DNA of 24,000 nucleotides from Hydrocarboniclastica marina (GTDB lineage: Bacteria > Pseudomonadota > Gammaproteobacteria > Pseudomonadales > Oleiphilaceae), in contig NZ_CP031093.1 in NCBI RefSeq assembly GCF_004851605.1, positions 2,580,692 through 2,604,691 of the forward strand, written 5' to 3'. The notes below the pieces were generated by a model. That model was not told the DNA's origin. It saw only the letters and a program-made list of their open reading frames with translations, and made no database searches. The position numbers and the translations under genes were made by a program. Within the stretch, counting starts at the first letter, position 1. Every line of letters begins with the position of its first letter. Of this stretch, positions 1-18,632 are shown piece by piece.

Positions 1-718
1 CATCATTCACGTAGAGCCGCTGGTTGCCGGGGGCAAGCACCATATGCTCTGGGTTGCCGCCAACTCGCAAATTGCGCTCGACGAACCAGTGCTCGGTATC
101 CACTTCGCTGACCGTGCCATTACCGGTATTGCTGACCAGAAGGGATTGGCCGTCGTCGGTTTGCACCAGATAGTTGGGGGCCGGCCCCGTCGCCACAGTT
201 TTGACCAACTGACCGGAATCCAGATCCACAACGCTGATACTGCCACGGGCAGGATGCGTGGAAACGGCATAGCGACCGTTGGAAGTCACCAGCACATGGT
301 GCACAGGCCCCGGCACTTCCAGTTTGCGGTCAATCGTCTTTGTGGCCGTGTTCACCAAATAGAGCAGCCCGGTACTCCCTGCTTCCAATTCAGTAGACTT
401 CCCGCCCCCATGATGAGCGGCGTGTTCATCTTCTGAAACGCCTTCGGGGCGACTAACCGGCTCCTGACGATCATGCGCCGACAAACTACCCACCACCAGA
501 TGCCGGCCATCCGGGGTCAGTGCCGAACCGTGGGTATTCAGTGTGCCGCCAATGTACGAAGTCACCTTGCGGTTTTCCAGATCAATAACGCCGACGGCAT
601 CCGCCGTGCCCATGGGAACAAATGCCCGGTTCGTGTCTGCGGCCACCATCAGCGAAAAACTCATAGCGACACTGGCCGTAATACCAGCAATACACTGCTT
701 GCGCAACGAATGGTTCAT
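1..718 (-). CDS. YVTN-family beta-propeller repeat protein, secreted/periplasmic (N-terminal 239 aa; 3' end lies beyond the left edge)
   Basis: Absent from the ORF track because it runs off the edge. ATG at 718-716 (minus). Translation MNHSLRKQCIAGITASVAMSFSLMVAADTNRAFVPMGTADAVGVIDLENRKV... has a signal peptide and repeated blade-like segments (GSALTPDGRHLVVGS, VHHVLVTSNGRYAVSTH, PNYLVQTDDGQSLLVSN, PEHMVLAPGNQRLYVND), plus a His-rich insert EDEHAAHHGGG. Confidence 0.75.
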   Translation of the reverse strand, partial: MNHSLRKQCIAGITASVAMSFSLMVAADTNRAFVPMGTADAVGVIDLENRKVTSYIGGTLNTHGSALTPDGRHLVVGSLSAHDRQEPVSRPEGVSEDEHAAHHGGGKSTELEAGSTGLLYLVNTATKTIDRKLEVPGPVHHVLVTSNGRYAVSTHPARGSISVVDLDSGQLVKTVATGPAPNYLVQTDDGQSLLVSNTGNGTVSEVDTEHWFVERNLRVGGNPEHMVLAPGNQRLYVND

Positions 719-819: not shown

Positions 820-836
820 CTGAAACAGGCCTGAAA
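820..836 (-). promoter_or_regulatory. PhoP-type direct-repeat box (minus strand TTTCAG-GCCTG-TTTCAG), 102 nt upstream of the YVTN gene start
   Basis: Plus strand reads CTGAAA-CAGGC-CTGAAA. The hexamer-N5-hexamer pattern recurs at 7691, 10963, 10997 and 14338. Confidence 0.45.
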
Positions 837-849
837 ACAGTTGCGAAAC

Positions 850-2199
850 ATGCATTCGTTTGACCAGAATCAAGGTGGAACGATTCACAATGACCATGGA
901 CACCCAATGCAAGACGTGCCCCAGGAAAACCAGCGAACAACCAAAACCCACGCCGACCAGCTCAACCGGCAGTGTTACTGCATCACCCTTGACCGAAAAG
1001 CGCTCACTGACAGCCTCCAGAAGCAGTTTTCAGACACTGGGAACGAGGCGCCGGCCACTCCCGAGATCCATCATTTCTTTTCAAACACGCCGGTTTTTGT
1101 TCCCCAGGCTGACATCGCGACGATGGAGCGGATTGTTCAGGCGATCGAATCCGCAGCCGAGCTTCCGCCCTATAAGGAAAAAGCTCTGTCCTGGGCGCCG
1201 GACATCGCCGGTTTTGATCCAGGCCCCATCGGGGCCTTCATGGGCTACGACTTTCACCTGGGCGAGAACGGGCCTCGGCTGATCGAAATCAACACCAACG
1301 CCGGCGGCGCATTTCTGAACACGGTATTGGCCCGGGCTCAACACCGATGCTGTGACCCGTCCCAGCAGACCGCTGGCACCAACCGTGCACTGGATGGGTT
1401 CGAGGACGCGGTGTTTGCCATGTTCCAGCAGGAGTGGCAACGGCAAGGTGGCGACTCGACGCCCGGTTGCCTGGCCATTGTGGATGATGCCCCTGAATCC
1501 CAGTTTATGTTCCCGGAATTCCAACTGGCCCAGCAGTTATTCCAGGCCAGAGGCATTGAGACCTTGATCCTCGACCCATCGGAGCTTGAGTATGTTGATG
1601 GCGCTCTGAGCGCCCACGGCAAGCCTATCGGCATGGTGTACAACCGCCTGGTGGATTTTGCCTTGGAGGCCCCGGCTCTTGGGGCGCTGAGGCGCGCCTA
1701 CCTCGACGGCGCGGCGGTCGTCACGCCCAATCCACGCGCCCATGCGCTGATGGCCGACAAACGGAACCTGATCCTGCTATCTGATGCCCAAACCCTGCGC
1801 GACTGGGGCCTGAGTGAAACCGAGGCAGGATTTCTGGATAGAGCTGTACCGAAGACCCGGCTGGTTTCAGCAAGTGATGAGGCGGAGTTGTGGAGCAACC
1901 GGCGTAAACTGTTTTTCAAACCGGTAGCGGGCCATGGCAGCAAGGGCGTCTATCGGGGCGAAAAACTAACCCGCCGCGTTTTCGAAGAGATCCTGAAGGG
2001 TGATTACATCGCGCAGAACTTCGTTCCCGCCGGAGAACGCACCCTGAGAGTGGATGGCACGGTCACCACCAGAAAGGTCGATATCCGTTTGTACACCTAT
2101 GCCGGGCAACATCTGCTTGCCGCTGCCCGTGTGTACCAGGGCCAGGCCACCAACTTTCGAACGCCGGGAGGTGGCTTTGCGCCCGTCTTTGAGGTGTGA
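850..2199 (+). CDS. Uncharacterized ATP-grasp-fold-like enzyme
   Basis: Long ORF (track 841..2199). Motifs suggest an ATP-grasp or glutathionylspermidine-synthase-like fold: GAFMGYDFHLGENGPRLIEINTNAGG, LFFKPVAGHGSKGVY, VDIRLYTYAG...ARVYQGQATNFRTPGGGFAPV. Start uncertain (TTG 841, ATG 850, ATG 907); none has a clear SD. Confidence 0.6.
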   Translation: MHSFDQNQGGTIHNDHGHPMQDVPQENQRTTKTHADQLNRQCYCITLDRKALTDSLQKQFSDTGNEAPATPEIHHFFSNTPVFVPQADIATMERIVQAIESAAELPPYKEKALSWAPDIAGFDPGPIGAFMGYDFHLGENGPRLIEINTNAGGAFLNTVLARAQHRCCDPSQQTAGTNRALDGFEDAVFAMFQQEWQRQGGDSTPGCLAIVDDAPESQFMFPEFQLAQQLFQARGIETLILDPSELEYVDGALSAHGKPIGMVYNRLVDFALEAPALGALRRAYLDGAAVVTPNPRAHALMADKRNLILLSDAQTLRDWGLSETEAGFLDRAVPKTRLVSASDEAELWSNRRKLFFKPVAGHGSKGVYRGEKLTRRVFEEILKGDYIAQNFVPAGERTLRVDGTVTTRKVDIRLYTYAGQHLLAAARVYQGQATNFRTPGGGFAPVFEV

Positions 2200-2259
2200 A
2201 GGTGAGCCTCAATTGGAAACATTCAAAGGGATTAAGCCGTCAGCAAAAGTGCTCGGATC

Positions 2260-2718
2260 TCATAGATCCTGCATTCGGCCAACCTGACGAGCCAGTCTCA
2301 TCGACTCATTTTCCTCCATCGCCAAAAGAGATTCGAACAGCTCTTTTGCTTCTGGAATTTCGGCTTTTCCAATCAGCGTTTTGTAGAGATCAATAATCTG
2401 ATCATGAAAGTCGAACACTTCCCGGCAGATACCATCAAAATCAAGCTTCGCGTAAGGCTCGTCGCAGGTTCGATGAGTTTTGATCGGATTATGGGACAGG
2501 TAGTCGTACACCCGAGTTTCCAGTGCCTTCTTATCCCCTTGGTGCTCAAACTCGTTCACGATCCGCTCTATTTCCGATTCATGAGCTGCCAGATAATCCA
2601 AAAGCGCACGGGCCCGTTCTTCCTCGTGCTTTGTTGCGCAATGGGACAGACAGCTCGCCAGATGTGAGTGCAGATCGCGCGTCCAGTCGATCAGTTGTCC
2701 AAAAGTCTTTATATCCAT
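2260..2718 (-). CDS. Hypothetical helical protein (152 aa)
   Basis: ORF track 2260..2769. I prefer the internal ATG at 2718 (MDIKTFGQLIDW...) because AAGGA lies about 8 nt upstream. The longer start would translate a homopurine tract as RRKKEKRKK. No family recognised. Confidence 0.55.
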   Translation of the reverse strand: MDIKTFGQLIDWTRDLHSHLASCLSHCATKHEEERARALLDYLAAHESEIERIVNEFEHQGDKKALETRVYDYLSHNPIKTHRTCDEPYAKLDFDGICREVFDFHDQIIDLYKTLIGKAEIPEAKELFESLLAMEENESMRLARQVGRMQDL

Positions 2719-2720
2719 AT

Positions 2721-2750
2721 CTTTTTTCCTTTTTTCTTTTTTTCTTCTCC
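2721..2750. repeat. 30-nt homopyrimidine (plus) / homopurine (minus) tract immediately 5' of the 2718 start codon
   Basis: Plus strand is cttttttccttttttctttttttcttctcc. Minus strand is GGAGAAGAAAAAAAGAAAAAAGGAAAAAAG followed by atATG. Confidence 0.85.
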
Positions 2751-2902
2751 ATAATATGACTGACATCAAATAGGTATCCCGTCGTCAAATGAGGAGTCCT
2801 ATTTGCATTTCCAGTGTTCAGTTGGGCTATGCGCTCGCCTGGCTAATTCGCTAATCCATTGCAAACCGCAGGCACTGCAGCAAATCGACGCCTCTACCGG
2901 CT

Positions 2903-3288
2903 TCAGATCGATTCCACAACCTCAGAGAGCATATCCCTGACCTTCCCGGCAACCTGCTTGAGCTCGTCATTATCGATGGCGCTCATGGAAGCCAATGGAT
3001 CCACTGCACTTACCTCAATGCCCTCCGAAACCTCACGAAGAATAACGTTGCAAGGCAGCATGGCACCCACGCGAGGCTCCACACCGATGGCTTCCCAGGC
3101 CATGCCAGGATTGCAGGTCCCGAGAATCCGATAGGCCTGCATATCCTTGTCCAGCTTTTCTTCATGGTGGCTTTGACATCAATTTCTGTCAGCACACCGA
3201 AGCCGTGATCAGTGAGGGCCTGACGCGCTCTTCTGTCCACGTCCTCGAAATCGACATCTTTGATAACTCGATCGATTGTGTATGACAT
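2903..3288 (-). pseudogene. DUF302-family protein interrupted by a frameshift (or by a homopolymer sequencing error)
   Basis: Two overlapping track ORFs (3010..3300 and 2903..3142) are the two halves of one DUF302 protein: MSYTIDRVIKDVDFEDVDRRARQALTDHGFGVLTEIDVKATMKK / (K)LDKDMQAYRILGTCNPGMAWEAIGVEPRVGAMLPCNVILRE.... Adding one A to the A4 run (plus T4 at 3156-3159) restores ...TMKKKLDKDMQAYRILG.... GGAGG SD precedes the ATG at 3288. Confidence 0.75.
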
Positions 3289-3312
3289 AGCTACCTCCAA
3301 TGATTCAGAAGT

Positions 3313-5673
3313 TCATTGCTTTGACCCGAGTTTCACCACCCTCAAACGCAGCGCATTCACAATCACGCTGACCGAGGACAGCGACATGGCGGCCGCTGCA
3401 AAAATGGGCGACAGCAGTATCCCGAAAAACGGGTACAAAACCCCTGCCGCTATCGGAACACCGGCGGAGTTGTAAACGAAGGCGAAAAACAGGTTCTGAC
3501 GGATATTGCGCATGGTCGCCAGAGACAAACGGCGCGCCTCGACAATGCCCATCAGGTCGCCGCGCAGCAGCGTAATGCCGGCGCTTTCGATGGCGACATC
3601 GGTCCCGGTGCCCATGGCCACACCGACATCCGCCGTTGCCAGTGCAGGCGCATCGTTTACGCCGTCACCCGCCATCACGACAACACGGCCTTCGTCTTTC
3701 AGGCGCTGGACGATCTTGCCCTTATCTTCCGGCAGGACTTCCGCTTCCACTTCGTCGATATGCAGTTTTCGAGCAACTGCTTCAGCTGAAGTGCGGTTAT
3801 CGCCGGTCAGCATGACCACCCGGATGCCGTCTTTTTGCAGCGCGGAAATAGCGGCTTCGGTGGTTTCCTTGACCGGATCGGCAATCGCCAGCAACCCTGC
3901 GACGTTTCCGTCGACAGCAGCAAAAATCACGGTAGCACCATCTTTTCGGAGCTGGTCGGCGTCGCCGTCAAATCGCGTGGTGTCGACATTTTCCGACTCC
4001 ATGAGAAGGCGGTTACCAAGTAGCACCCGCTTGCCGTCTATTCGACCGGTAACCCCTTTACCATTCGGAGAGTCAAAGTCTTCCGCATCCGGAAGCTTCA
4101 GGTCCATGCCCTTGGCTTTATCGAGTATGGCGTGAGCCAGTGGGTGCTCACTGCCTTTCTCCAGGCCACCTGCATAACGCATGAGACTACTGTCATCGAA
4201 CCCGTTGGCCGCGACAAGCCGGGTGACTTGCGGCTTGCCCTCTGTCAGCGTGCCGGTTTTATCCACCACCACGGTGTCCACCTTCTCCATACGCTCCAAG
4301 GCTTCCGCATCGCGAATCAGAACGCCACTTTGAGCACCGCGTCCGACACCCACCATGATGGACATGGGCGTCGCCAAGCCAAGTGCGCAAGGGCAGGCAA
4401 TGATCAGAACACTGACCGCTGCAATCAGCCCGAACGCCATAGGCGGTGCGGGTCCAAAGAAGGACCAAGCAATAAAGGCGACAATAGCAATCACAATAAC
4501 TGCCGGCACAAACCAGCCTGCTACCTTGTCAGCCAGCCCCTGGATCGGTGCGCGGCTACGCTGGGCGCTGGCCACCATCTGGACAATCTGGGACAGCATG
4601 GTATCGCGGCCAACTTTGTCGGCCCGCATGATGAAGCTGCCCTGCTGGTTTATGCTGCCGCCGATCACTTGGTCGCCGGATTTCTTGCTGACCGCCAGGG
4701 GCTCGCCGGTCACCATGGACTCATCCACGTTGGAGCTGCCTTCAAGCACCTCGCCGTCCAGCGGCACCTTGTCACCGGGGCGCACCCGCAGGCGGTCGCC
4801 CACCTTGACCTGATCAAGCGACACATCGGATTCGCTGCCATCGTCGTCCAGTTTTCTGGCCGTCGCCGGTGCCAGATCCAGCAGGGCCTTGATGGCACCA
4901 GAGGTTTTCTCTCTGGCGCGCAATTCCAGCACCTGCCCCAGCAGCACCAGCACCACGATGACAGCAGCCGCCTCGAAGTAGACGGCGACCGACCCGTCTT
5001 CCTGCCGGAAGGCGCCTGGGAAGATCTGCGGCGCCAGGGTCGCCACCAGGCTGTAGATCAGCGCGACGCCGGTACCAATGGCAATGAGCGTAAACATGTT
5101 CAAGTTACGGCTAACCACGGATTTCCAACCCCGGACGAAGAAGGGCCAACCGCACCAGAGCACCACAGGCGTTGCCAGCACCAGTTGAATCCAGTTGGAC
5201 ATCTGCGGGGCTATAATGTGATCGAGTCCGGTGAGGTGCCCACCCATCTCCAGCACCAGTACAGGCAGGGCCAGCACCAGGCCGATCCAGAATCGGCGGG
5301 TCATGTCTTTGAGTTCTTCCGAAGGCCCGTCGTCCAGGCTTACCTGCTCGGGCTCCAGGGCCATGCCGCAGATTGGGCAGTCCCCTGGCCCTTGCTGCCG
5401 AATCTCGGGGTGCATGGGACAGGTATACATAGTGCCCGGCGCTACCGGCTCTTGCTGTTTCTTTTCCCAATCGAGGTACTGCTCAGGGTCCTCGTCGAAT
5501 TTGGACTGGCAACGCGACGAGCAGAAGTACCAGGTTTTACCGCCATGCTGGCTGCGGTGTTCCGCGGTATGCGGATCCACTGCCATGCCGCAAACCGGAT
5601 CCTTGGCGGTGTGCTCGCCAGGTTCTTTATCGGTGTGGTGATCGTGGTCATGGGCGTGATGGTGCTCAGCCAT
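3313..5673 (-). CDS. copA: Copper (Cu+/Ag+)-translocating P1B-type ATPase
   Basis: Motifs [25 protein letters not shown] and MLTGDN. N-terminus is His-rich ([13 protein letters not shown]), followed by a TRASH/YHS-like domain (DPVCGMAVD...[11 protein letters not shown]) and YTCPMHPE...CPICGM. AGGAG SD lies 7 nt before the ATG at 5673 (the track ORF starts at 5715). Confidence 0.92.
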
Positions 5674-5893
5674 TGCGATCTCCTGTTTTGTCGGCGGGCC
5701 AGTCTGCAAATGCAATAAAATACAGCAGAACCAGATTGACGATGGGGATCAATATCAGCACACCCATCCACCCCGGATACCCGGTGCGCTGGCAAATACG
5801 CCAAGCCGGAATGACCACCACAATGGCAATCACCAGCATCCACAGCCAGTGGCCTGCCCACATGGTATTCCCGAACATGTTATCTCCCATCAT
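5666..5893 (-). CDS. Small two-TM membrane protein, translationally coupled to copA
   Basis: 75-aa ORF with two hydrophobic helices ([37 protein letters not shown]). Its stop overlaps the copA ATG by 8 nt. GGAAGAGAGG lies upstream. Confidence 0.55.
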
Positions 5894-5920
5894 GGCAATA
5901 GCCTCTCTTCCTGATTCAGA

Positions 5921-7273
5921 TTAATGATGATGCGCATGACTCTCTTCCTGTTTCGCTTGCGCCGATTCCGGTGATCTTTTAAGGAAAATCTGCTCGGATA
6001 CTGCAATCACGATCATGGTCACGACTGCCACGCTGATGACGAACGGGTCCGTATTAAGCTTTACCCAGACGAAGCCGCCCAGCGCCAAAAGATCCAACAA
6101 GATGGCTGTTGCTGGCACCCAGGTGTTGGCCTTAATGTCTTTGCGTAGATAACGGAGCACACCCCAGTGAATGGCAATGTCCATAATCAGATAAAACACG
6201 ATACCCAACGCAGCAATGCGTGACAGGTCAAAGAAGGCGGTCAGAATCAGACCCAGGACAACGGTATACACCAGTGTGTGCTTCTGAATGCTGCCGGGCA
6301 TCCCGAAATGCCGATGAGGAACCAGTTTCATCTCCGTCAGCATGGCCAACATGCGGGACACAGCAAATACACTGGCCAGAATTCCTCCCGCCGTGGCCAT
6401 CATGGCAATCGCAACAGTAAACCAGACGCCGTATTCGCCGAGAGCGGGGCGTGCAGCAGCGGCGAGAGAGTAATCCTGCGTTTCGATAATTTCAGCCAGA
6501 GATAGATTGCTGGCGACCGCAAACCCCACCAGCGTGTAGATCACCACACAGGCGGCAATGGAAATCACGATGGCGCGCCCAACGTTTCGCTTCGGGTCGA
6601 TGACTTCCGAACCACTGTTGGTGATGGTCGTAAAGCCTTTGAACGCAAGAATGCCCAACGCGGTCGCGCCCAAGAAGTTGCCCAGCGTTCCGGCTTCACC
6701 GGGCTCCGAAAAATCAACCGCGACTGAGTCGGCAATCCAGACCCCGACCAGACCGAAAATCAGTATGCCGCCGATTTTCAGGATCCCGATAAAGGAAGCC
6801 ACCCCTTGAATCATCCGATTGCCCAGCAGGTTGATCAGAAAGGCCGCAAGAATGAGCGCCACGCCGAGAATGGGCACCATGCGGCCACTGTCATCCCCGC
6901 CGAAAAGTTGCATGGTGTAAGAGCCAAAGGTCCGGGCCAGGAAGCTCTGAGCGATGACCATGGAAAAATACATCAACAGGGCGTTGAAAGCCGTTGGCAG
7001 CCGGTTTCCGTAGGCTTTATGCAAGTACATGCCAATGCCCCCGGCCGACGGGTAGGCGTTGGAAATCTTGATATAGGAATACGCGCTGAAGCCAACAATC
7101 AAGGCCGCCGCGAGAAAGGCCAGCGGGAAAAGGACGCCGGTCATCTGCGCCATCTGCCCGGTCAGAGCAAAAATACCGGCGCCAATCATGACGCCGGTAC
7201 CCAGCATCACCGTCCCTGGCAGAGTGAGACTACCTTCCTGGTAGCGAGTGCTTCGATCTTCCTCCCTGCTCAT
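5921..7273 (-). CDS. APC-superfamily amino acid/polyamine permease
   Basis: 450 aa with about 12 predicted TM segments. N-terminal GTGVMIGAGIFALTG motif is typical of APC transporters. AGGAG SD. Start is 11 nt after the stop of the upstream gene. Confidence 0.8.
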   Translation of the reverse strand: MSREEDRSTRYQEGSLTLPGTVMLGTGVMIGAGIFALTGQMAQMTGVLFPLAFLAAALIVGFSAYSYIKISNAYPSAGGIGMYLHKAYGNRLPTAFNALLMYFSMVIAQSFLARTFGSYTMQLFGGDDSGRMVPILGVALILAAFLINLLGNRMIQGVASFIGILKIGGILIFGLVGVWIADSVAVDFSEPGEAGTLGNFLGATALGILAFKGFTTITNSGSEVIDPKRNVGRAIVISIAACVVIYTLVGFAVASNLSLAEIIETQDYSLAAAARPALGEYGVWFTVAIAMMATAGGILASVFAVSRMLAMLTEMKLVPHRHFGMPGSIQKHTLVYTVVLGLILTAFFDLSRIAALGIVFYLIMDIAIHWGVLRYLRKDIKANTWVPATAILLDLLALGGFVWVKLNTDPFVISVAVVTMIVIAVSEQIFLKRSPESAQAKQEESHAHHH

Positions 7274-7284
7274 TCAATCTCCTG

Positions 7285-7638
7285 TTATTTTTTCATGGGT
7301 GGAATCTTGGAACAGCAGAACGGCTCATGCTTGGCATTTGCCCGGACGTTGTCGTCGGTAAACCGGTACCAGGCCAGTTTGCGCCGGGTCCACCATCCGG
7401 TTTTCAATCGGCCACCGTAAGCCTTGATCAGTTCCAGTAATTCATCGACGGACCAGTGGGTTCCATCGTACGTCACCTGCAATGTGCCATTTGGCTTACG
7501 CTCGGCGAAATCAACGCATGGGTGGTGATTCAGATCGTGGATGAGCCCCTCCCACTGATCCTCTCCAAGCCCCTCGACGGTCATTTTTCGGCGCAACAAA
7601 AACTGCTCCTGGTTGGTTGCTTTGTGTGCTTTGGTCAT
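7285..7638 (-). CDS. HMA-like (ferredoxin-fold) protein lacking the CxxC motif, with a C-terminal CC pair
   Basis: The segment MTVEGLGEDQWEGLIHDLNHHPCVDFAERKPNGTLQVTYDG...LLELIKAYGG resembles a heavy-metal-associated beta-alpha-beta-beta-alpha-beta domain with GEDQ in place of CxxC. The C-terminus is ...AKHEPFCCSKIPP. Start chosen at 7638 (GAGAGG SD); the track start is 7689. Confidence 0.5.
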   Translation of the reverse strand: MTKAHKATNQEQFLLRRKMTVEGLGEDQWEGLIHDLNHHPCVDFAERKPNGTLQVTYDGTHWSVDELLELIKAYGGRLKTGWWTRRKLAWYRFTDDNVRANAKHEPFCCSKIPPMKK

Positions 7639-7690
7639 GGGGTGACACCTCTCTTCCTGATGACTTCTCCCTGTATCAAAACACTTCAAC

Positions 7691-7707
7691 CTGAACTGCG
7701 GCTGAAA
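7691..7707 (-). promoter_or_regulatory. PhoP-type box (minus strand TTTCAG-CCGCA-GTTCAG), 53 nt upstream of the 7638 start
   Basis: Plus strand reads CTGAAC-TGCGG-CTGAAA. It lies in the intergenic region between the copB terminator and the HMA-like gene. Confidence 0.45.
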
Positions 7708-7754
7708 ATGGACACATGCTTTCGGTGAATTTGAGTTACATCAAATCATAGACG

Positions 7755-7781
7755 AAAAAAGGCCATGGGTTTCCCATGGCC
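7755..7781 (-). terminator. Rho-independent terminator of the copI-MCO-copB operon
   Basis: Perfect 9-bp stem GGCCATGGG-TTT-CCCATGGCC (7761-7781). It is followed on the minus strand by T6 (plus A6 at 7755-7760) and sits 9 nt after the copB stop. Confidence 0.85.
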
Positions 7782-7789
7782 CTTCAGCA

Positions 7790-8539
7790 TCAGAATGCGA
7801 TTCGAGCGCCGATTACGGCAAACCAATCTTCTGTGCCGCCGCCGCTCGCCTCGGCCAGGTCGGCACTATCGCCATACTTACGCTCGTGCACCACACCCAC
7901 ATAAGGCGAGAACGCACGGTCTATCAGGTCGTAGCGGAGCCGGAGGCCGGTTTCGGTGGAAACCAATCCTTTGCCGACACCAATCTCTTCATCCTCACTG
8001 AACGCTACCGAGGCATCCAGAGTTGCCGCCAGGATCCAGTAATTGGTGAACAGCAATTCGTACTCAGCGTCCAGTTCGGCTGACGTATCACCATCGTTGC
8101 TGACGTACAGGTTTGCATCGATCTCAAACCATTGGGGCGCCAGGCCGGCGACACCGAGAACGGCGTATGTCCGGTCCGGCCCCTCGGGCGTATCGAAACG
8201 CACGCCCGCTTTGGCGTCGAAGAACTTGGAAATGGGGATCTGGCCGACCAACTGGTTTTCCAGCGTTTCGTAGGCCTGCTCCTCTATTTCGTATTCGCCG
8301 GTTGTGAGCAACCGGACTTTAAAGTCGTCGGTGCCATAGAAGGCATCCGCATTCCAGACGCCCAGCTCCTCGTCATCGTCGCTGTAGCGGTACTCAAATT
8401 CCTCGAATAGAACGCCCCAGGTTGTGAGCGGCTGTTTTCGAGCGGTCGTGTCGGAGATCATTTCCTGAGCTGTCACCGCCGTTGAGACACCAATAGAGGC
8501 AAGGAAGCTGACTGCGACAATTGATCGAATACAGCTCAT
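7790..8539 (-). CDS. pcoB: Copper resistance protein B (CopB/PcoB), outer-membrane beta-barrel
   Basis: Signal peptide MSCIRSIVAVSFLASIGVSTAVTAQE. Alternating beta-strand pattern and terminal ...GARIAF. ATGA start/stop overlap with the upstream multicopper oxidase. Confidence 0.85.
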   Translation of the reverse strand: MSCIRSIVAVSFLASIGVSTAVTAQEMISDTTARKQPLTTWGVLFEEFEYRYSDDDEELGVWNADAFYGTDDFKVRLLTTGEYEIEEQAYETLENQLVGQIPISKFFDAKAGVRFDTPEGPDRTYAVLGVAGLAPQWFEIDANLYVSNDGDTSAELDAEYELLFTNYWILAATLDASVAFSEDEEIGVGKGLVSTETGLRLRYDLIDRAFSPYVGVVHERKYGDSADLAEASGGGTEDWFAVIGARIAF

Positions 8540-10246
8540 ACCTCACCTCCATCTTTGGCAATCACGTCTGTTTTGGCCTGCGTCGACTCTGGCCCACCTT
8601 CAACAATGACCTTGCGGAACATACCAGCGGCCGCGTGATAGGACAGGTGACAGTGGAACGCCCACTGACCGGGCGCGTCGACCTCGGTTTCCATGTAAAC
8701 CGTGGTGCCTGGCTGCACACTGACCGTGTGCTTGATCGGGTTCCATTGGTCTGCACCAACATCGAGAATGGACCACATACCGTGCAGGTGCATAGGGTGA
8801 GTCATCATGGTCTCGTTCACGAATTTGAAGCGAACTCGCTCACCGTATTTGAGACGAATTGGGTCTGCGTCTTCGTACTTGACGCCATTAATGCTCCAGG
8901 TATAGCGCTCCATATTGCCGGTCAAACGAAGCTCAATTTCCCGGGTCGGTTCGCGGTCTTCATACAGTGGATCTTGGGCCTTCAGGTCAGCATAGGACAG
9001 GAACTTGCCGCCATTGGCTGCCGTGGGTACAAGGCCACTTCCCTTGGCGTAAAAGGGGTCGCTTTGGCCGCCTTTTCCCATCGCCATGGAACCATGATCC
9101 ATGCCTTCCATGTTGGAATGATCCATTCCGGACATCCCTTCTGAGCTATTCATATCCATGTCGCCATGATCCATACCGGCCATGTTGCCATGGTCCATGC
9201 CGGGCATACCGCTCATGTCTGCCATAGTCAGGCGCGCCGGATCACGCAGTTGCGGAACAGCCGCTTCCATACCTTCTTCGGGGGCCAACGTTGCCCTGGC
9301 ATAGCCGGAACGCCCCATGGATTCAGCGAAAATGGTGTAGGCCTGCTCATCTTTCGGGTGGACGATCACATCATAGGTTTCCGCCACACCGATCCGGAAC
9401 TCGTCCACGTTAACGGGCTGAACGTTGTTGCCATCGGCCTGTACAACCGTCATGTCCAGACCGGGAATCCGTATGTCGAAGTAGGTCATGGCCGAGGAGT
9501 TGATGAACCGCAGCCGGATGCGTTCTCCGGGCTCAAAAAGGCCAGTCCAGTTCTGCTCGGGACCTTTGCCGTTGATCAGGCCCGTAAAGCCCTGCAAGTC
9601 CTCAACGTCCGCTTTCATCATCCGCATGTCACCCCAGGCCATGCGGTCCCGAATGGTGTTCATCAGACCGTTTTTGGACGCGTCCGAAAAAAACTCCCCC
9701 ACGGTTTGCTGCTCACGGTTGTAGTAATCCGGCATCATTTTCAGGTTGCGCATGATGCGGTCACCGGAATGGGGGTGCTTGTCAGTCAGCTGCACCACGT
9801 ATTCACGATCGTAGCGGAATGGCTCACGGCCCTCGGGCTCGATGACAATGGCACCATAGGCGCCGTCCGGCTCCTGAAAACCAGAGTGGCTGTGGAACCA
9901 GTAGGTGCCTGCCTGCTGGATAGAAAACTCATAGGTAAAGGTTTCACCCGGCTTGATGCCCGGGAAACTGATACCAGGCACACCGTCCTGGTTAAAAGGA
10001 AGGATCAGGCCGTGCCAGTGAATGGACGTCATCTCATCCAGGTTGTTGGTCACGTTGATCCGGACGTTCTCGCCTTCCTTGAAACGCATTACCGGTCCCG
10101 GAGATGCGCCGTTGTATCCAATGCCTTCCTTCACAAAATCGCCGGTATCAATTTTTACCCCGGTCGACCGTAAGGTCGTATTCGCCGGCCAGAACCATGG
10201 CTGGCATCAGCAGGCTCAAAAGCCCTGTCAAAAAGCGTGGTTTCAT
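8536..10246 (-). pseudogene. pcoA: Copper-resistance multicopper oxidase (CopA/PcoA type); a frameshift separates the signal peptide from the enzyme body
   Basis: Body 8536..10134 carries HWHG, WFHSHSG, HPMHLHG and HCHLSYH copper sites and a Met/His-rich MDHGxM repeat. A 32-codon ORF (10246..10148), MKPRFLTGLLSLLMPAMVLAGEYDLTVDRGKN*, encodes the signal peptide and first strand in another frame. Removing one G from GGGG (plus C4 at 10158-10161) gives ...EYDLTVDRVKIDTGDFVKEGIGYNG.... GGAG SD precedes 10246. Confidence 0.8.
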
Positions 10247-10330
10247 CTGTGTTGCTCCGAACTACACGTCATTGAAGCCGGGCCGAGAAACGTGTCTCAG
10301 CCCCGCGCTCGCGGACCTCAGTTAAGCGAG

Positions 10331-10864
10331 TTACTCGAAATTGACCTCACCGTACATCCCGGCCTGATAGTGGCCCGGCACGTTGCAGGCAAATTCGATA
10401 TTGCCTTTATCAGAGAACTTCCATACCACTTCTTTACTTTGGCCCGGTTCCAGCAACACGCTGTTCGGGTCGTCATGCTTCATGGAATGGCCATTCCCCA
10501 TATCCATATTCATCATGTCGTGGTTCAGCTTGCCGCCCTGGATGACGCCATGCTCAACCATCATCATCATTTCCTCTTGATGAGCTTCGTGCATGTCGGG
10601 AGTGCCAACACTGAACTCATGGACGAGGTTTCCCTTGTTCTCCACCACGAAGCGAACGGTTTCACCCGGCTTTACACTGATTTCTTCGGGTTCGTAGTAG
10701 TTGTCGTACATCTCGACAGTTACGGTTCGGCTGGCCTCCGACGCTTTGCCAGGTTCACCGCTTGTAGCGCCGTGCCCGTGGCCACCATCATGGGCGCCAG
10801 CCGCAAACGCTGTTGCCGACATTGAAAGCGCCATACCCGCTACGAATAGTTTTGATGCATTCAT
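10331..10864 (-). CDS. CopI-like periplasmic cupredoxin with a His/Met-rich region
   Basis: Signal peptide MNASKLFVAGMALSMSATAFA. Type-1 Cu ligands: VHEF...CNVPGHYQAGM. Met/His-rich MHEAHQEEMMMMVEHG...HDMMNMDMGNGHSMKH. GAGGA SD precedes the ATG at 10864 (track start 10918). Confidence 0.8.
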   Translation of the reverse strand: MNASKLFVAGMALSMSATAFAAGAHDGGHGHGATSGEPGKASEASRTVTVEMYDNYYEPEEISVKPGETVRFVVENKGNLVHEFSVGTPDMHEAHQEEMMMMVEHGVIQGGKLNHDMMNMDMGNGHSMKHDDPNSVLLEPGQSKEVVWKFSDKGNIEFACNVPGHYQAGMYGEVNFE

Positions 10865-10962
10865 CTTTTTATCCTCTGTAAAATATTGCTCGAAAAACAC
10901 TGCCGGATTGAGCCCCAATCTTGAGCAATGTCCAGAATCGGTTGTTACCTTCTCTCACTAAC

Positions 10963-10979
10963 CTGAATTCTTTCTGAAA
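10963..10979 (-). promoter_or_regulatory. PhoP-type box (minus strand TTTCAG-AAAGA-ATTCAG), 99 nt upstream of the copI-like start
   Basis: Plus strand reads CTGAAT-TCTTT-CTGAAA. Both hexamers are identical to the box at 14338. The flanks (A-TCGA...TTCC) are also similar. Confidence 0.5.
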
Positions 10980-10996
10980 AACTCGAACTATTTTCC

Positions 10997-11013
10997 GTTC
11001 AGGCTGAATTCAG
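10997..11013 (+). promoter_or_regulatory. PhoP-type box (plus strand GTTCAG-GCTGA-ATTCAG), 51 nt upstream of the response-regulator start; probable autoregulation site
   Basis: This is the only copy on the plus strand, and it faces the only plus-strand target (the TCS operon). It is part of an inverted arrangement TAACCTGAATTC...GAATTCAGGTTA. Confidence 0.5.
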
Positions 11014-11063
11014 GTTAATCAGTCACACTTTCGACCGCGGACCATACATAGAAGGAAAAACTC

Positions 11064-11729
11064 ATGCGTTTACTGCTCGTCGAAGATGACCGCTTGCTTG
11101 CTGAGGGTCTGGTCAGGCAGTTGGGAAAAGCAGGTTTCAGCGTTGATACAACTCCCAGTGCCCGAGAAGCCGTCGTTCTGGGTGAGCAAGAGGATTACCG
11201 TGCTGTTGTTCTGGACCTGGGTCTACCTGATGGCAACGGGCTGGACGTATTGAGAAAGTGGCGAACGAATCACGTCAGCTGTCCGGTCTTGATTCTGACC
11301 GCGAGAGGCGATTGGCAGGATAAGGTTAACGGCTTAAAAGCCGGGGCAGACGATTACCTGGCAAAACCTTTTCAGACAGAAGAGCTAATCGCACGCCTCA
11401 ACGCACTCGTGCGTCGAAGTGAAGGAAGGATCCATACTCAGGTTAAAGCCGGCCGCTTTGAACTGGACGAAAACCGCCAGAGTCTCAAGATGGACGACGG
11501 CGTGGAACATACACTTACCGGCACCGAATTCCGGCTGCTACGTTGTTTGATGAGCCGCCCTGGCCACGTCTTTTCCAAAGAACAACTAATGGAACAGCTT
11601 TACAACTTGAATGATAGCCCGAGCGAAAACGTCATTGAGGCGTATATTCGGAGGTTAAGGAAGCTAGTGGGCAGCGAAACCATCTCAACACGACGCGGCC
11701 AGGGGTACATTTTTAATGCGATTCCTTAA
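11064..11729 (+). CDS. OmpR/PhoB-family response regulator, PhoP-like
   Basis: Receiver domain (VEDD...DLGLPDGNGLDVLRKWR...LILTARGDWQDKVNGLKAGADDYLAKPF) plus a winged-helix C-terminus (...TRRGQGYIF). From memory, the LDLGLPD..GL...R.WR.N.VS.P.L.LTAR..WQDKV pattern closely follows enterobacterial PhoP. Confidence 0.9.
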   Translation: MRLLLVEDDRLLAEGLVRQLGKAGFSVDTTPSAREAVVLGEQEDYRAVVLDLGLPDGNGLDVLRKWRTNHVSCPVLILTARGDWQDKVNGLKAGADDYLAKPFQTEELIARLNALVRRSEGRIHTQVKAGRFELDENRQSLKMDDGVEHTLTGTEFRLLRCLMSRPGHVFSKEQLMEQLYNLNDSPSENVIEAYIRRLRKLVGSETISTRRGQGYIFNAIP

Positions 11730-13050
11730 AAAGCCTGCGTCCGTAAAAGGAACCTTGCTTGCGCTGTTACTGCCCGCCGGAATTGGTCTAATGGGGGTGG
11801 CGTGGTTGGTCCATGGCTTGCTGCTCGACCGAATGTCTCGGGAATTCGTTGAAAGCCGACTGAAAGATGAAGTCGTTTTCCTTGAGCACCAGATTCGCGA
11901 CGCGAATGGTGAAGTTGACACTCTCCAGACGGGCGATTATTTCCAGGATGTTTTTCATCATGCCTTTGCCATACATACACCCGAACAGACCATCATTTCA
12001 CCCGATACTTGGGAGCCCTTGTTAACGCCTCTGATTGAAAACGAAGAAGACGGAACCGTTCGCGTAGAAGATGCCGAAACCACTGATACTCCCTTAGACA
12101 TCCTCGCCTACCGAAAGTCTTTTCAGGTCGGTGAAACACCCATCGTCGTAATCGTTTCTGAAGATCTGGGTGCGCTGAAACGCAGCCAAGCTGCACTTCA
12201 TACCTGGACCGCCGTAGTATCAGTTCTGTTGATTATGCTCTTGGTCGCCGTGCTCTGGTTCGGAATCACGATGTCCATGCGACCGGTTGTCACACTCAAA
12301 GCCGCATTAAAAAGACTCCAGGACGGAGAGATCTCCCGAATCAACGTTCAGTCGCCAGAGGAGTTCCACCCGCTGGTTCTTCAACTAAATCAGTTGCTGG
12401 ACTCCTTAGATCAGCGACTGGAGCGCTCCAGGGACGCTCTCGCAAACCTGTCTCATAGCGTCAAAACCCCCATCGCAGCCGTCCGGCAGATACTGGAAGA
12501 CGACACACGTCCTCTCGACACCAATCTAAGGCGCCAGATGGTGGAGCGACTAAGCGATATCGACAGGCAATTAGAAGCTGAAATGCGTCGAAGCCGTTTT
12601 GCAGGGCCCCAGATTGGAAAAAGCGCCTACCCCATAAAACAGGCACGGGATCTTTTGTGGATGCTCGGTCGTTTATATCCGGAAAAGTCGTTTGAACTAT
12701 CGAGTTCTCTGCCTGAAGACAGCCGATGGCCGATAGAAGAACATGATCTAAATGAAGTATTGGGCAACTTACTCGACAATGCTGGCAAATGGTCTTCGAG
12801 ATGCGTAGAGCTCTCTGTGGAACAAGGCAGCGGCTTCAAGCGAATAGTTGTTGCTGATGATGGCCCAGGGGTTAATCACAAGGATTTAGCCAGTTTGGGC
12901 CAAAGGGGTCTGCGGCTAGATGAGCAAACACCTGGGCACGGTCTCGGCCTTGCTATCGTTCGAGATATAGTGACTCGCTATGAAGGTAAAATCAGCTTTT
13001 CGACTAAGTCCTGTAGCGGTTTACGCGTTTCTATCGAATTATTAAGATAA
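11716..13050 (+). CDS. Sensor histidine kinase, PhoQ-like
   Basis: Two TM helices flank an acidic periplasmic domain of about 150 aa. HAMP region. H-box LSHSVKTPIAAV, N-box LGNLLDNAGKW, DDGPGV, GHGLGLAIV. Overlaps the regulator gene by 14 nt. Confidence 0.9.
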   Translation: MRFLKKPASVKGTLLALLLPAGIGLMGVAWLVHGLLLDRMSREFVESRLKDEVVFLEHQIRDANGEVDTLQTGDYFQDVFHHAFAIHTPEQTIISPDTWEPLLTPLIENEEDGTVRVEDAETTDTPLDILAYRKSFQVGETPIVVIVSEDLGALKRSQAALHTWTAVVSVLLIMLLVAVLWFGITMSMRPVVTLKAALKRLQDGEISRINVQSPEEFHPLVLQLNQLLDSLDQRLERSRDALANLSHSVKTPIAAVRQILEDDTRPLDTNLRRQMVERLSDIDRQLEAEMRRSRFAGPQIGKSAYPIKQARDLLWMLGRLYPEKSFELSSSLPEDSRWPIEEHDLNEVLGNLLDNAGKWSSRCVELSVEQGSGFKRIVVADDGPGVNHKDLASLGQRGLRLDEQTPGHGLGLAIVRDIVTRYEGKISFSTKSCSGLRVSIELLR

Positions 13051-13116
13051 AATCGAATGTTCGCTTTTGTTTAAAAGCCCATCTTTGAGACTGGTCAAAG
13101 CTCGAATAATCATGTT

Positions 13117-13332
13117 CTATGAAACAGCTCCCTCTTGCCATTTTTTAATCACGTTCCGCAGTTTTAAGAGCCCCGCCTCAGTGTCCATCAGCGTGACCGG
13201 CGCTTGATTGCCTATAGCCCGGATCGGAGATGACAGCCATAGTTCAGCTTTCAGTCTATCGTCTTCGAAAAGCTCCAGAACCTCACAATAGACCTGCTCT
13301 CTCAGCTCGGCCACAGCCCGCTCTTCACTCAT
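13117..13332 (-). CDS. Stand-alone DUF2384 (ParS/MbcA/Xre antitoxin toxin-binding domain) protein, copy A
   Basis: MSEERAVAELREQVYCEVLELFEDDRLKAELWLSSPIRAIGNQAPVTLMDTEAGLLKLRNVIKKWQEGAVS fits the DUF2384 pattern W(L/M)..P...LGG..P..L..T..G...V...L..I..G. AGGAG SD lies 7 nt before the ATG at 13332 (track start 13401). Confidence 0.65.
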   Translation of the reverse strand: MSEERAVAELREQVYCEVLELFEDDRLKAELWLSSPIRAIGNQAPVTLMDTEAGLLKLRNVIKKWQEGAVS

Positions 13333-13393
13333 ATCAATACTCCTGTAGTGATCAACTAATCCCCGACAAATTGGTTGGCTCCTGGCCAATTGC

Positions 13394-13436
13394 TTGGTCA
13401 AACACTGTGATCGTGTATTGTGGAATTCGACCGGTC
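13394..13436 (+). promoter_or_regulatory. Candidate sigma-70 promoter (TTGGTC-N16-TATTGT) and palindromic operator GACCGGTC for small-protein gene A
   Basis: -35 at 13394-13399, -10 at 13416-13421, palindrome at 13429-13436. All three elements are conserved in the diverged inverted copy at 18301-18343. Confidence 0.4.
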
Positions 13437-13465
13437 AAAAATCTAATTTCACAAGAGATTTATCT

Positions 13466-13714
13466 ATGAAGAACGTACTCGACCAAATCAGTTCATTGCT
13501 CAAAGAAGCGCTGGCTGTCGCAGAAACTCTCGATGGCTTCAAAGGGAGCACAGCGACACTGGATTTGTCCTGTTTCGACGGCAGCACCGCCACTATCACC
13601 GAGACGCTCGACAACCTGTGCGATGACACCGACACCTCAGGATCGTGCTGCGCAACCAGACCGTTGCAGCAGGCCCTGGTAACTGGGCATGGACACGGCG
13701 TAGAGCAGTCGTAA
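13466..13714 (+). CDS. Small acidic Ser/Thr-rich protein, paralog A (82 aa), unknown function
   Basis: MKNVLDQISSLLKEALAVAETLDGFKGSTATLDLSCFDGSTATITETLDNLCDDTDTSGS.... By hand alignment, 31 of the first 60 residues are identical to the protein at 18264..18010. The in-frame upstream extension in the track is in a different frame relative to the homologous DNA of copy C, so the ATG at 13466 is preferred. Confidence 0.55.
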   Translation: MKNVLDQISSLLKEALAVAETLDGFKGSTATLDLSCFDGSTATITETLDNLCDDTDTSGSCCATRPLQQALVTGHGHGVEQS

Positions 13715-13892
13715 ACTCCGGAGAAATTCCGCCCGCGACCAGTAGGATGCGCGCGTGTCGAGGAGAACGGACCCAATGTATGCGCAGATCCAGCGCCATA
13801 TCCTGTATCAAATGCTGCGCATGGGAGCCGATAGCCGGATAGACAGATACCGGGGCTTTAGACGCTAGACGGGCAAGCCAGGTCACTGCCAT
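13596..13892 (-). pseudogene. NuoB-like (complex I 20-kDa subunit family) fragment lacking the Fe-S cysteines and the C-terminal half
   Basis: MAVTWLARLASKAPVSVYPAIGSHAQHLIQDMALDLRIHWVRSPRHARILLVAGGISPEFTTALRRVHAQLPGPAATVW.... By recollection of the NuoB pattern, it aligns with ...FGLACCAIEM...RFG...ASPRQAD..IVAGT......ALR.VYDQMPEPK.V. The CC pair is replaced by HA. Recognisable similarity stops near 13653. The ATG overlaps the nuoA-like stop by 10 nt and GGAGG lies upstream. Confidence 0.5.
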
Positions 13893-14236
13893 TTGAAGGC
13901 ACCCTCCCGCCAGCCATAAACGATACCCACGGAAAGGATGGCCAGAAACATCCCCATCTCGACCAGGGCCTTGACCCCCTCCTCCACGTAGACAACCGCC
14001 CATGGATACATGAACATCATCTCCATCTCGAAAGCGATCAAGAGCAGCGTCATGGGATAATAGCGGACGTGGAACCGGCTCCAGGCGTGGGTGTCAGGTG
14101 CTCCGCCCCCAAGAAAGGGCGCACGTTGAGGCCAGGACGGTTTTGCCGTCGAGAAAGGACTGCAGATCACCAGCAGCCCTGCTGTGAATGTCGCGATGCT
14201 GATAGTCATCAGTGTCGCTAGCTCCGTTAGCTCCAT
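13883..14236 (-). CDS. NuoA/ND3-like three-TM membrane protein (orphan)
   Basis: 117 aa. ...RFHVRYYPMTLLLIAFEMEMMFMYPWAVVY...LVEMGMFLAILSVGIVYGWREGAFKWQ matches the NuoA/Nqo7 layout (F.V.FY.VA..F..FD.E..FL.PWA......G.Y.W..G...W). The usual YE(S/C)G is replaced by FLGGG. GGGAG SD. Confidence 0.7.
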   Translation of the reverse strand: MELTELATLMTISIATFTAGLLVICSPFSTAKPSWPQRAPFLGGGAPDTHAWSRFHVRYYPMTLLLIAFEMEMMFMYPWAVVYVEEGVKALVEMGMFLAILSVGIVYGWREGAFKWQ

Positions 14237-14337
14237 GCCAACAGTCTCCCTTCCATCTTTGCCAGAGCCGGATCCATCCGTTGGGTTCTAGGACTATCTT
14301 AAGGCAGCGTGCAACGCTTTGAGGATCTCAGCCAAAA

Positions 14338-14354
14338 CTGAATTCAAACTGAAA
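14338..14354 (-). promoter_or_regulatory. PhoP-type box (minus strand TTTCAG-TTTGA-ATTCAG), 102 nt upstream of the nuoA-like start
   Basis: Plus strand reads CTGAAT-TCAAA-CTGAAA. Both hexamers are identical to 10963-10979. An extra GTTCAG half-site (plus CTGAAC at 14365-14370) lies 11 nt upstream on the minus strand. Confidence 0.5.
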
Positions 14355-15930: not shown

Positions 15931-16932
15931 ATGCAAAAAATACGCTTTAGCAGGAACAAGAACCAGCGCAATTTCGGTCTGGGCCACCACCCGGGCTACG
16001 CCGCGCAGGTCGCTCTCGCACAAATGTATGGAGGAGACAAGCATTACTACACCCGCTTCACCCATCGTGCCAGATTTGAGCATTGTCTGAACTGGGCGTC
16101 GGAACTCGACATCCCAATTCGCGATCTGCGCCAGATCACATTGGCACACGCCGTCGAGTACGGACAGGCCCTCGCGGATTCTGTCGCCTCTGGAGGTATG
16201 GAGGTTGCCTATGCACAGAACCTCATCTCGACGTTGAATGTCGTCATGCGGGCAGTCCGCCGAGACCGAAAAGTTTGGCTATCGCCGGCCGGCGTGGTCG
16301 GCAAACGATCCTACGTTAGAACGGTTTTGCCAACGGCCACATGGGATAAAGTGATAGAGGCAGTGAGGTTGGCAGAAACCGCGGGCAACTATCGAGGAGC
16401 AGCTCTGGTTCTGCTGTGGCGAGCGTTCGGTATGCGCTTCAGGGAAGCGGCCCAGGCTAACCTCCACCGGATGATGACTGAGGCTCAAGCCTACGGTACC
16501 GCGCGGGTATTGGAAGGAACGAAAGGAGGTTTCAGATCTGATGATAGGAGGATCAGGATTGAAAGTGTCCAGTGGCAAGCTCTTGACTACGCACTTCACA
16601 CAATTTCCATTTCGGGGACGTGCCTGATTGATACAAACACATCCCTCAAAGAATTCCTCAATCGGCACGCCAGCCCCATGCGCCAGATTCTCAAACAGGT
16701 CGGAATCCAATGCCCGAAAGATTTACGTGCGGAGCGATTTATAGACGTCTACGAGCGAGCGAGCGGTCAGCCAGCTCCGCTGAAACAATACGGGTCGTTC
16801 GACAGGGAAGCGGACGCCATAGGCAGACTCGCTGTAGGTCATGAGGGGGGTCATAAACGCCCGACAATCTCAACGTCTTACGTGGGCGAACGGCATCGGA
16901 CCAACCACGGAGAAGGGAGACCCAGGCGATGA
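15931..16932 (+). CDS. Tyrosine recombinase / integrase-domain protein (Integrase_1-like with an N-terminal SAM-like domain)
   Basis: 333 aa. Candidate catalytic residues: Arg in AFGMRFREA, Lys in EGTKGGF, KDLRAERF (HxxR-like), GHEGG, and Tyr in TSYVG. The N-terminus (...THRARFEHCLNWASELDIPIRDLRQITLAHAVEY) resembles phage-integrase N-terminal SAM-like domains. Confidence 0.65.
   Translation: MQKIRFSRNKNQRNFGLGHHPGYAAQVALAQMYGGDKHYYTRFTHRARFEHCLNWASELDIPIRDLRQITLAHAVEYGQALADSVASGGMEVAYAQNLISTLNVVMRAVRRDRKVWLSPAGVVGKRSYVRTVLPTATWDKVIEAVRLAETAGNYRGAALVLLWRAFGMRFREAAQANLHRMMTEAQAYGTARVLEGTKGGFRSDDRRIRIESVQWQALDYALHTISISGTCLIDTNTSLKEFLNRHASPMRQILKQVGIQCPKDLRAERFIDVYERASGQPAPLKQYGSFDREADAIGRLAVGHEGGHKRPTISTSYVGERHRTNHGEGRPRR

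Positions 16933-18556: not shown

Positions 18557-18632
<76 letters not shown>

Follow-up and report, generated by a model that had tools for sequence, protein, structure and literature searches.

Conserved TTCAG direct repeats at five promoters of a copper-resistance island in Hydrocarboniclastica marina and their relation to a PhoPQ-like two-component system

The window analysed here is a 24,000-nucleotide stretch of the genome of the marine gammaproteobacterium Hydrocarboniclastica marina (contig NZ_CP031093.1, positions 2,580,692 to 2,604,691), and coordinates are counted from its first letter. It carries a copper-resistance island, a two-component system divergent from the copper genes and five copies of a direct repeat, NTTCAG-N5-NTTCAG, each in front of a gene; these repeats, referred to as boxes, and the two-component system are the subject of this report. 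Exact database matches for window proteins (QCF26529, QCF26530 and QCF26533) come from the same species. Copper islands are usually wired through CusRS, CopRS, PcoRS or CueR, and the PhoP regulon of pseudomonads is known for Mg2+ responses and polymyxin resistance.

Two minus-strand units lie to the left of the regulator gene. The nearer, copI-copA-copB, is headed by copI (10331-10864), which encodes a periplasmic cupredoxin (Pfam cupredoxin; NCBIfam CopI, 192.8 bits), followed by the multicopper oxidase gene copA (8536-10246; true ATG at 10246) and by copB (7790-8539), the gene of an outer-membrane copper-resistance protein. A terminator-like hairpin with a T-run can be read from the sequence at 7755-7781 on the minus strand, 3′ of copB. 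The second unit comprises orf117 (7285-7638), whose conserved hypothetical product has Cys-Cys at its C-terminus, an amino-acid-permease-family transporter (5921-7273) and a P1B-1 Cu(I)/Ag(I) ATPase (3313-5715) with CPC, YN and MxxSS motifs, an N-terminal His-rich tract, YHS and HMBD. Further left is a YVTN/YncE-like beta-propeller gene (1-718, minus strand), of which the window holds the 5′ part, the remainder lying beyond its edge. On the plus strand, an OmpR/PhoB-family response regulator of 221 amino acids (11064-11729; receiver Asp51, winged helix) overlaps the gene of a 444-residue sensor histidine kinase (11716-13050), which has two transmembrane segments and a periplasmic domain of about 125 residues (about 36-162); its cytoplasmic part carries HAMP_PhoQ, His247 and an ATPase domain like that of PhoQ. 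To the right of the kinase gene, a fragment of an Xre-type antitoxin is followed by a NuoB-like stub and a NuoA-like gene, then by an integrase gene (15931-16932, plus strand), tRNA-Thr (18557-18632, minus strand) and pil genes (pilA, pilB and a T2SSF-family, pilC-type gene). The integrase and the tRNA mark the island boundary, and the copper cluster is a tRNA-Thr/integrase island next to pilA.

The five boxes had been reported in an initial annotation of the window, and every one was found at its reported position. Box 1 (TTTCAG-GCCTG-TTTCAG; 820-836, minus strand) lies 101 nt 5′ of the YVTN gene ATG at 718, box 2 (TTTCAG-CCGCA-GTTCAG; 7691-7707, minus strand) 52 nt 5′ of the orf117 ATG at 7638, box 3 (TTTCAG-AAAGA-ATTCAG; 10963-10979, minus strand) 98 nt 5′ of the copI ATG at 10864 and box 5 (TTTCAG-TTTGA-ATTCAG; 14338-14354, minus strand) 101 nt 5′ of the NuoA-like ATG at 14236; all four match the pattern exactly. 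Box 4 (GTTCAG-GCTGA-ATTCAG; 10997-11013, plus strand) stands 50 nt 5′ of the response-regulator ATG at 11064 and is proposed to be an autoregulatory site. Tandem half-sites with a period of about 11 bp are present at the five promoters, that of the regulator included. On the strand of its target gene each box reads NTTCAG-N5-NTTCAG, as the initial annotation had it, and all five are intergenic and aimed at the adjoining start codon. The gaps between box and ATG fall into two classes, 50-52 and 98-101 nt; the distances given before (102, 53, 99, 51 and 102 nt) are the same as 101, 52, 98, 50 and 101 nt, the counting convention differing by one. Boxes 3 and 5 do share both hexamers and some flanking bases. 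Beside box 1 lies the gene of a 449-residue protein (850-2199, plus strand) with only faint ATP-grasp similarity, which recurs in islands (loci L020-L023 of the comparison below) and directly adjoins a box that faces the other way: box 1 in the window and the box at 18437 in L020.

The number of boxes is far above chance. The pentamer pattern CTGAA-N6-CTGAA has hits at 820, 7691, 10963, 10998 (minus strand) and 14338 of the 24-kb window, that is five with both strands counted. As the chance level, 100 shuffles of the window that preserved dinucleotide content averaged 0.05 hits and never exceeded 1. Allowing one mismatch adds three sites (11849, 15093 and 22516), none of them promoter-like.

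The initial annotation had proposed examining the boxes in orthologous islands. For this comparison 80 loci from species-representative genomes were retrieved by kinase alignment (individual loci bear L numbers), and the box counts add the window. The order copB-copA-copI, divergent from regulator and kinase, is kept in nearly all 80 loci, and orf117-permease-ATPase usually lies beyond copB. Exact boxes number 215 in 1.46 Mb, compared with about three expected by extrapolation from the window shuffle count. They face the regulator gene in 67 cases, copI in 65 and orf117 in 39, at distances from the ATG of 49-57, about 98-105 and 51-53 nt, respectively; the spacer of the orf117-facing box is variable among its 39 instances. 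Further targets are orf169, second P-type ATPases, a TolC-like efflux gene, an EamA transporter, a GAPDH-like gene and two families of small signal-peptide proteins, one of them Met-rich. In a test independent of the motif, loci were anchored on the regulator start codon and kept where at least 230 nt of upstream sequence was present (n = 69). The exact box is retained in front of the regulator in 66 of these and in front of copI in 68; the three exceptions among the 69 loci show a point mutation, a small deletion and unrelated upstream DNA, respectively. Over the 59 unique sequences, conservation is 0.987 in the 20 pentamer columns, 0.873 in the spacers and 0.697 in the 207 other intergenic columns. 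Kinase copies without boxes occur where the regulator and cop genes were lost to insertion or replacement, and these loci were rejected as counter-examples because their upstream DNA has been replaced. To judge from this pattern, the boxes are under strong purifying selection along with the PhoP-like regulator and the copper genes. The earlier proposal that one regulon takes in both copper operons and the regulator itself is thereby strongly supported at the level of sequence, the boxes being conserved in about 65 independent loci. In the predicted copI 5′ leader, one block (10900-10935, CATTGCTCAAG on the minus strand) comes close to the boxes in its conservation across the loci; a hairpin reading of this leader (ATTGCTC...GAGCAAT) was dropped, since its second arm varies among loci.

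The surroundings of the boxes suggest how they might act. In class II promoters of the PhoB/PhoP kind a direct-repeat box replaces the -35 element, and some 10-12 bp separate its end from the -10 hexamer. An xAxxxT hexamer follows the proximal pentamer at exactly 10 nt in the regulator, copI and nuoA-like promoters and in that of a nuoA-like cluster elsewhere (L088). The putative -10 elements are CACACT for the regulator (11024-11029, plus strand, exactly 10 nt after box 4), where GACACT is the conserved block in a set of 49 unique promoters; GAAGGT for copI (10947-10952, minus strand), which reads GATGGT across loci; GATCCT for the nuoA-like gene (14322-14327, minus strand); and GATTGT in L088. 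A conserved TGTTGTGATAGA block stands at a similar offset in the orf117 promoter. Because the proximal pentamer ends 10 nt upstream of the -10-like hexamer, the box appears to occupy the -35 position, and no -35 element was found at the box promoters. A generic sigma-70 and terminator scan of the window returned fewer promoter-like sites than the shuffles and none at the boxes, a null result consistent with activator-dependent promoters that lack a -35 element. The predicted leaders would measure about 25 nt for the regulator and orf117 and about 75 nt for copI, the YVTN gene and the nuoA-like gene. The same box-for--35 architecture, here with a 10-nt gap, is found with the PhoB pho-box and the enterobacterial PhoP-box, the half-site sequences of which differ from TTCAG.

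The half-sites match those of a known operator. The P. aeruginosa PhoP consensus is GTTCAGNNNNNRTTCAG (PMC3156716), so the Pseudomonas PhoP box given in the initial annotation was correct. Box 4 matches this consensus exactly and the other four boxes deviate from it only at the first base of a hexamer; unlike the P. aeruginosa box, the island boxes mostly have TTTCAG as the first hexamer. Operators of the heavy-metal lineage are ATTCATnnATGTAAT, CTGACAn5GTAAT, GAAACn6GTAAT (CzcR) and TGACAAnnTTGTCAT (PMC11195947); the cop/cus boxes among them are palindrome-like, with a GTAAT or TGTCAT half-site. In the window, ATTCATnnATGTAAT, CTGACAn5GTAAT and TGACAAnnTTGTCAT (2-3 mismatches; the CzcR motif was left out) occur at or below chance and never in a promoter; canonical CopR/CusR/CzcR operators were rejected on these counts and positions.

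The regulator has the expected PF00072 (91.5 bits) and PF00486 (Trans_reg_C, 73.6 bits) domains, and its Asp51 is invariant. Among NCBIfam models it scores highest with PmrA (206 bits, below the equivalog cut-off of 330), ahead of PhoP (NF008078, 181.5 bits, cut-off 336), TctD, RppA and QseB, and it fails the heavy-metal response-regulator subfamily TIGR01387 (156 bits, cut-off 279.2). Its best solved homologues are BasR/PmrA (PDB entries 8jo2 and 4s04; E ~2e-42), followed by DrrD and the receivers of CarR and E. coli PhoP. For direct comparison, a P. aeruginosa PhoP sequence was used as query and retrieved database proteins named PhoP that are 85-95% identical to it. Over its full length the regulator shares 47% identity with one such Pseudomonas-type PhoP (P0181) and 46% with that of Alloalcanivorax xenomutans (P0285; both BLASTP). 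Common to it and Pseudomonas-type PhoP are NVIE at the start of the recognition helix, RLR, and T.RGQGY in the wing. On these comparisons the regulator is a paralogue of Pseudomonas-type PhoP and not PhoP itself. The failure of TIGR01387, the 46-47% identity to PhoP and the PhoQ-family kinase beside it support the earlier view that it is PhoP-like rather than CopR/CusR-like; profile searches of the window proteins found no CopR-type regulator encoded in the window.

The kinase divides into two parts of different affinity. Its best NCBIfam family is PhoQ (NF008077, 165 bits), over the cytoplasmic part only; PF26769 (HAMP_PhoQ) is recorded for its exact-sequence cluster and its orthologues, and its best PDB matches are PhoQ catalytic domains. 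The heavy-metal kinase family TIGR01386 fails (86.2 bits, cut-off 292.55). In a BLASTP alignment with a genuine Alloalcanivorax PhoQ (L083), only residues 185-440 align, at 31% identity. No PhoQ_Sensor Pfam domain was matched in the kinase, and the PhoQ sensor was not among the matches of a fold search with the periplasmic domain. The AlphaFold model of this domain (pLDDT 79.9) is PAS/PDC-like, and searching the PDB with the fold returned weak, generic PAS/PDC matches, the best at E = 8e-3 and the Zn sensor CzcS in 11th place; assignment of a ligand from the fold was dropped, the matches being generic and E no better than 8e-3. The periplasmic stretch has one Met (M40, beside the first transmembrane segment) and no Cys, and its residues H58, H81, H82 and H162 are invariant in 13 orthologues. 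The automatic database labels `CarS' and `PhoQ' on some orthologues were not used as evidence, and their other names are generic. Since a PhoQ-like cytoplasmic core is joined to an unrelated periplasmic domain, the pair is best described as a PhoPQ paralogue with a different sensor. The PhoPQ-like system of the initial annotation thus holds for the PhoP-like regulator, the HAMP_PhoQ domain and the PhoQ-like catalytic core, but not for the sensor domain, which is unrelated to that of PhoQ.

Set against known systems, the island pair shares with P. aeruginosa PhoP-PhoQ the 11-bp-period TTCAG direct repeat, regulator identity of 46-47%, a HAMP_PhoQ and PhoQ-like catalytic domain and, as predicted from the boxes, autoregulation and a box replacing the -35 element. 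It differs in its unrelated periplasmic sensor and in lacking the oprH-phoP-phoQ context: it stands with copI-copA-copB in about 65 loci, and Alloalcanivorax has a separate oprH-like/phoP/phoQ locus. Its proposed regulon is made up of copper-resistance genes carried by a mobile island instead of lipopolysaccharide and Mg2+ genes. With CusRS, CopRS, PcoRS and CzcRS it has in common a two-component system divergent from copper-resistance genes, and systems of the heavy-metal type are autoregulated via the shared intergenic region and are often island- or plasmid-borne (PMC11195947); the protein lineage (TIGR01387 and TIGR01386 failed) and the operator are nonetheless others. PmrA/BasR-PmrB provides the top model score and the best solved homologues for the regulator and has the same domain organization, but the kinase is far closer to PhoQ than to PmrB (165 versus 83 bits). 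The PmrA box consists of CTTAAG-type repeats, unlike TTCAG. By these comparisons the regulator-kinase pair is neither PhoPQ itself nor of the CusRS/CopRS type.

Box 5 faces the NuoA-like gene (13883-14236, minus strand; 117 amino acids; Pfam Oxidored_q4, 84.7 bits), which is translationally coupled to a truncated NuoB/D-fusion-like stub of 98 codons (13596-13892, minus strand). The stub stops where a small converging open reading frame and antitoxin fragments start, and intact homologues of the B/D fusion have 422-436 residues. In Marinobacter, Halomonadaceae and Stutzerimonas, homologues with 65-91% identity are the first genes of complex-I-like clusters of eight genes; these widespread clusters consist of nuoA, the B/D fusion, H, J, K, L, M and N without an N-module (about 9001-17400 in L085-L087 and L089; 4956-13485 in L088). 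Because the homologues head intact clusters, the copy in the window is a truncated remnant. In L088, where the cluster is intact and the NuoA-like protein 91% identical, an exact box with a different spacer (TTTCAG-ATCTA-ATTCAG) lies 99 nt upstream with the same -10-like offset, and the cluster adjoins RND and OEP efflux genes; L087 has a one-mismatch box 97 nt upstream of its nuoA-like cluster, and L081 carries a copy identical to box 5, likewise within 99-101 nt of a nuoA-like gene. In Marinobacter bryozoorum (L014, 121-3259, minus strand) a Nuo-like module takes the place of the ATPase, 3′ of orf117 and the permease and hence within what would be a box-controlled operon. It has a more distant NuoA-like gene, a NuoH-like gene and a 627-residue fusion composed of a NuoB-like part, HMBD, a long His-rich tract and a NuoD-like C-terminus. 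The suggestion that NuoA/B-like genes are tied to metal stress through the boxes is therefore supported, at least in some islands, by the L088 box and the L014 operon, while the supposed pair in the window is a truncated remnant.

We consider it likely that the five boxes are operators of the island's own two-component system, which would be derived from PhoPQ, sense copper and activate five promoters in the class II manner. The kinase would sense periplasmic copper through its PAS/PDC-like domain, with the invariant His81-His82 pair, and would phosphorylate the regulator at Asp51. A dimer of the phosphorylated regulator would then bind head-to-tail to (T/G)TTCAG-N5-(A/G/T)TTCAG with an 11-bp period and, seated in the -35 place, would activate rather than repress. 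The regulon so proposed comprises the system's own operon, under positive feedback, copI-copA-copB, orf117-permease-Cu(I) ATPase, the YVTN gene and the truncated complex-I-like cluster. Several points weigh against this proposal. The periplasmic domain gives weak fold matches and has no Met-rich or CusS-like metal site. The -10 matches are weak, and the orf117 and YVTN promoters fit less well than the others. The YVTN box was seen in this window only, and the box is missing at three of the five nuoA-like clusters examined elsewhere (L085, L086 and L089). Alloalcanivorax, a host genus of the island, encodes a canonical PhoP that likely recognizes the same motif, and no description of this two-component system was found in the literature.

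One alternative retains the system and the boxes as described and changes the signal to Ag(I), another metal or an envelope or redox stress caused by metals. Since the fold matches are weak and no known metal site is present, the case for copper sensing rests on the content of the regulon and the four conserved His residues. A sensor of generic PAS/PDC fold without a recognizable copper site, with the Zn sensor CzcS among its weak matches, would suit such a signal. P1B-1 ATPases and Cus-like systems handle Ag(I) as well, and the complex-I-like cluster, the GAPDH-like gene and the EamA transporter are not classical copper genes. However, the core regulon in about 65 loci is made up of CopI, the CopA multicopper oxidase, CopB and a Cu(I) ATPase, and the periplasmic His residues are invariant. 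Judged by these genes and residues, copper is probably the signal of the system, and a different one is unlikely.

A second alternative has the boxes read by the canonical PhoP of the host in response to Mg2+ limitation or cationic peptides, the island plugging into the host PhoP regulon. The box is the P. aeruginosa PhoP consensus, and Alloalcanivorax has an oprH-like/phoP/phoQ locus with a PhoP 86% identical to the Pseudomonas-type query and a one-mismatch box. This box, GTTCAA-GTTCC-GTTCAG, lies at 3189-3204 in L083, 82 nt 5′ of the oprH-like gene, so that host PhoP in this genus probably reads nearly the same operator. As a canonical PhoP likely to recognize the same motif is present in a host genus, the binding protein is not assignable from sequence alone. 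Against a host regulator as the sole reader, the boxes accompany the island regulator from genus to genus and vanish with its loss, one of them sits on the island regulator's own promoter, the island regulator keeps the PhoP-like DNA-reading residues, and there is no apparent reason for Mg2+ control of Cu oxidase and Cu ATPase genes. We therefore regard control by host PhoP in place of the island regulator as quite improbable; cross-talk from host PhoP as an additional layer is plausible from the shared motif.

That the repeats are non-functional, whether through duplication of a promoter cassette or by chance, or are sites for CopR, CusR or another factor can be given hardly any weight: boxes 3 and 5 do share flanking bases and islands are mosaic, but the five upstream regions cannot be aligned beyond the boxes (mean column identity 48%), their invariant columns are mostly the pentamers, so that cassette duplication was rejected, the pentamers stay invariant while spacers and flanks drift between loci with kinases 70-100% identical, and cop/cus/czc motifs are at or below chance and outside promoters in a window that encodes no CopR-type regulator.

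A broader version of the proposal, that the island's own regulator governs a regulon extending to the complex-I-like machine without N-module, a membrane complex for redox reactions or ion translocation that copper would regulate and that might handle copper, and that the identity of the operator with the PhoP box of the host lets the island link copper stress with the host's PhoP regulon in both directions, is tentative and rather doubtful at present.

The distribution of the module points to mobility. Kinases 99-100% identical to that of the window occur in Marinobacter spp., Alloalcanivorax, Alcanivorax, Halopseudomonas oceani, Pseudomonas abyssi and a Methylococcales metagenome-assembled genome, and kinases 70-89% identical in many other Marinobacter, Vreelandella, Allohahella and Ketobacteraceae genomes. 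As the kinase is near-identical across genera and several genomes have two copies, the module is mobile; the 99-100% identity in at least six genera indicates, on the sequences compared, recent horizontal spread, and the pattern is consistent with movement as a self-contained regulatory cassette. A plasmid search with the copI-regulator-kinase region matched only copI-like genes, and the module is therefore not on known plasmids. A subset of Marinobacter loci (L046, L051, L052, L054, L059, L060, L063-L066 and L070; for example L052, 11566-15527) has a second two-component pair 3′ of the kinase, its regulator 46% and its kinase 30% identical to those of the window, and in several of these loci the first kinase is without its own regulator and cop genes.

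Some features of individual genes deserve mention. Compared with the 98%-identical copy in L002, copA contains one G too many in a run of G near 10158, which shifts the frame and cuts the signal peptide (ATG 10246) off from the remaining open reading frame; either the gene is a frameshifted pseudogene or the homopolymer was misread in sequencing. The orf117 product has no Pfam or NCBIfam match, is always encoded first in the permease-ATPase operon and has the C-terminal sequence HEPFCCSKIPP, which may be a metal or lipid-anchor motif. Homologues of the YVTN gene were found 3′ of orf117 in L020 and L021. Fragments of Xre/ParS-type antitoxins without an adjoining RES toxin lie at 13117-13401 and 13473-13714 in the window and at 4520-9120 in L081; together with the small converging open reading frame inside the Nuo-like cluster they are signs of repeated rearrangement at this end of the island. 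The right-hand flank with the Nuo-like remnant and the Xre fragments is confined to H. marina and a Tara metagenome contig (L081).

A pair of PhoPQ lineage, with a different sensor but a PhoP-type operator, would thus be the dedicated regulator of a copper island that is common, almost unchanged, to marine Gammaproteobacteria of the genera Marinobacter, Alcanivorax, Alloalcanivorax, Halopseudomonas and Hydrocarboniclastica and to Pseudomonas abyssi. It offers a testable regulon of five promoters with a 17-bp operator, in which orf117, the permease, the YVTN propeller and the complex-I-like cluster become candidates for functions in copper stress, and it predicts cross-talk with the PhoP regulon of the host. 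Within the two-component lineage to which it belongs, the system would be a natural example of the replacement of a sensor domain.

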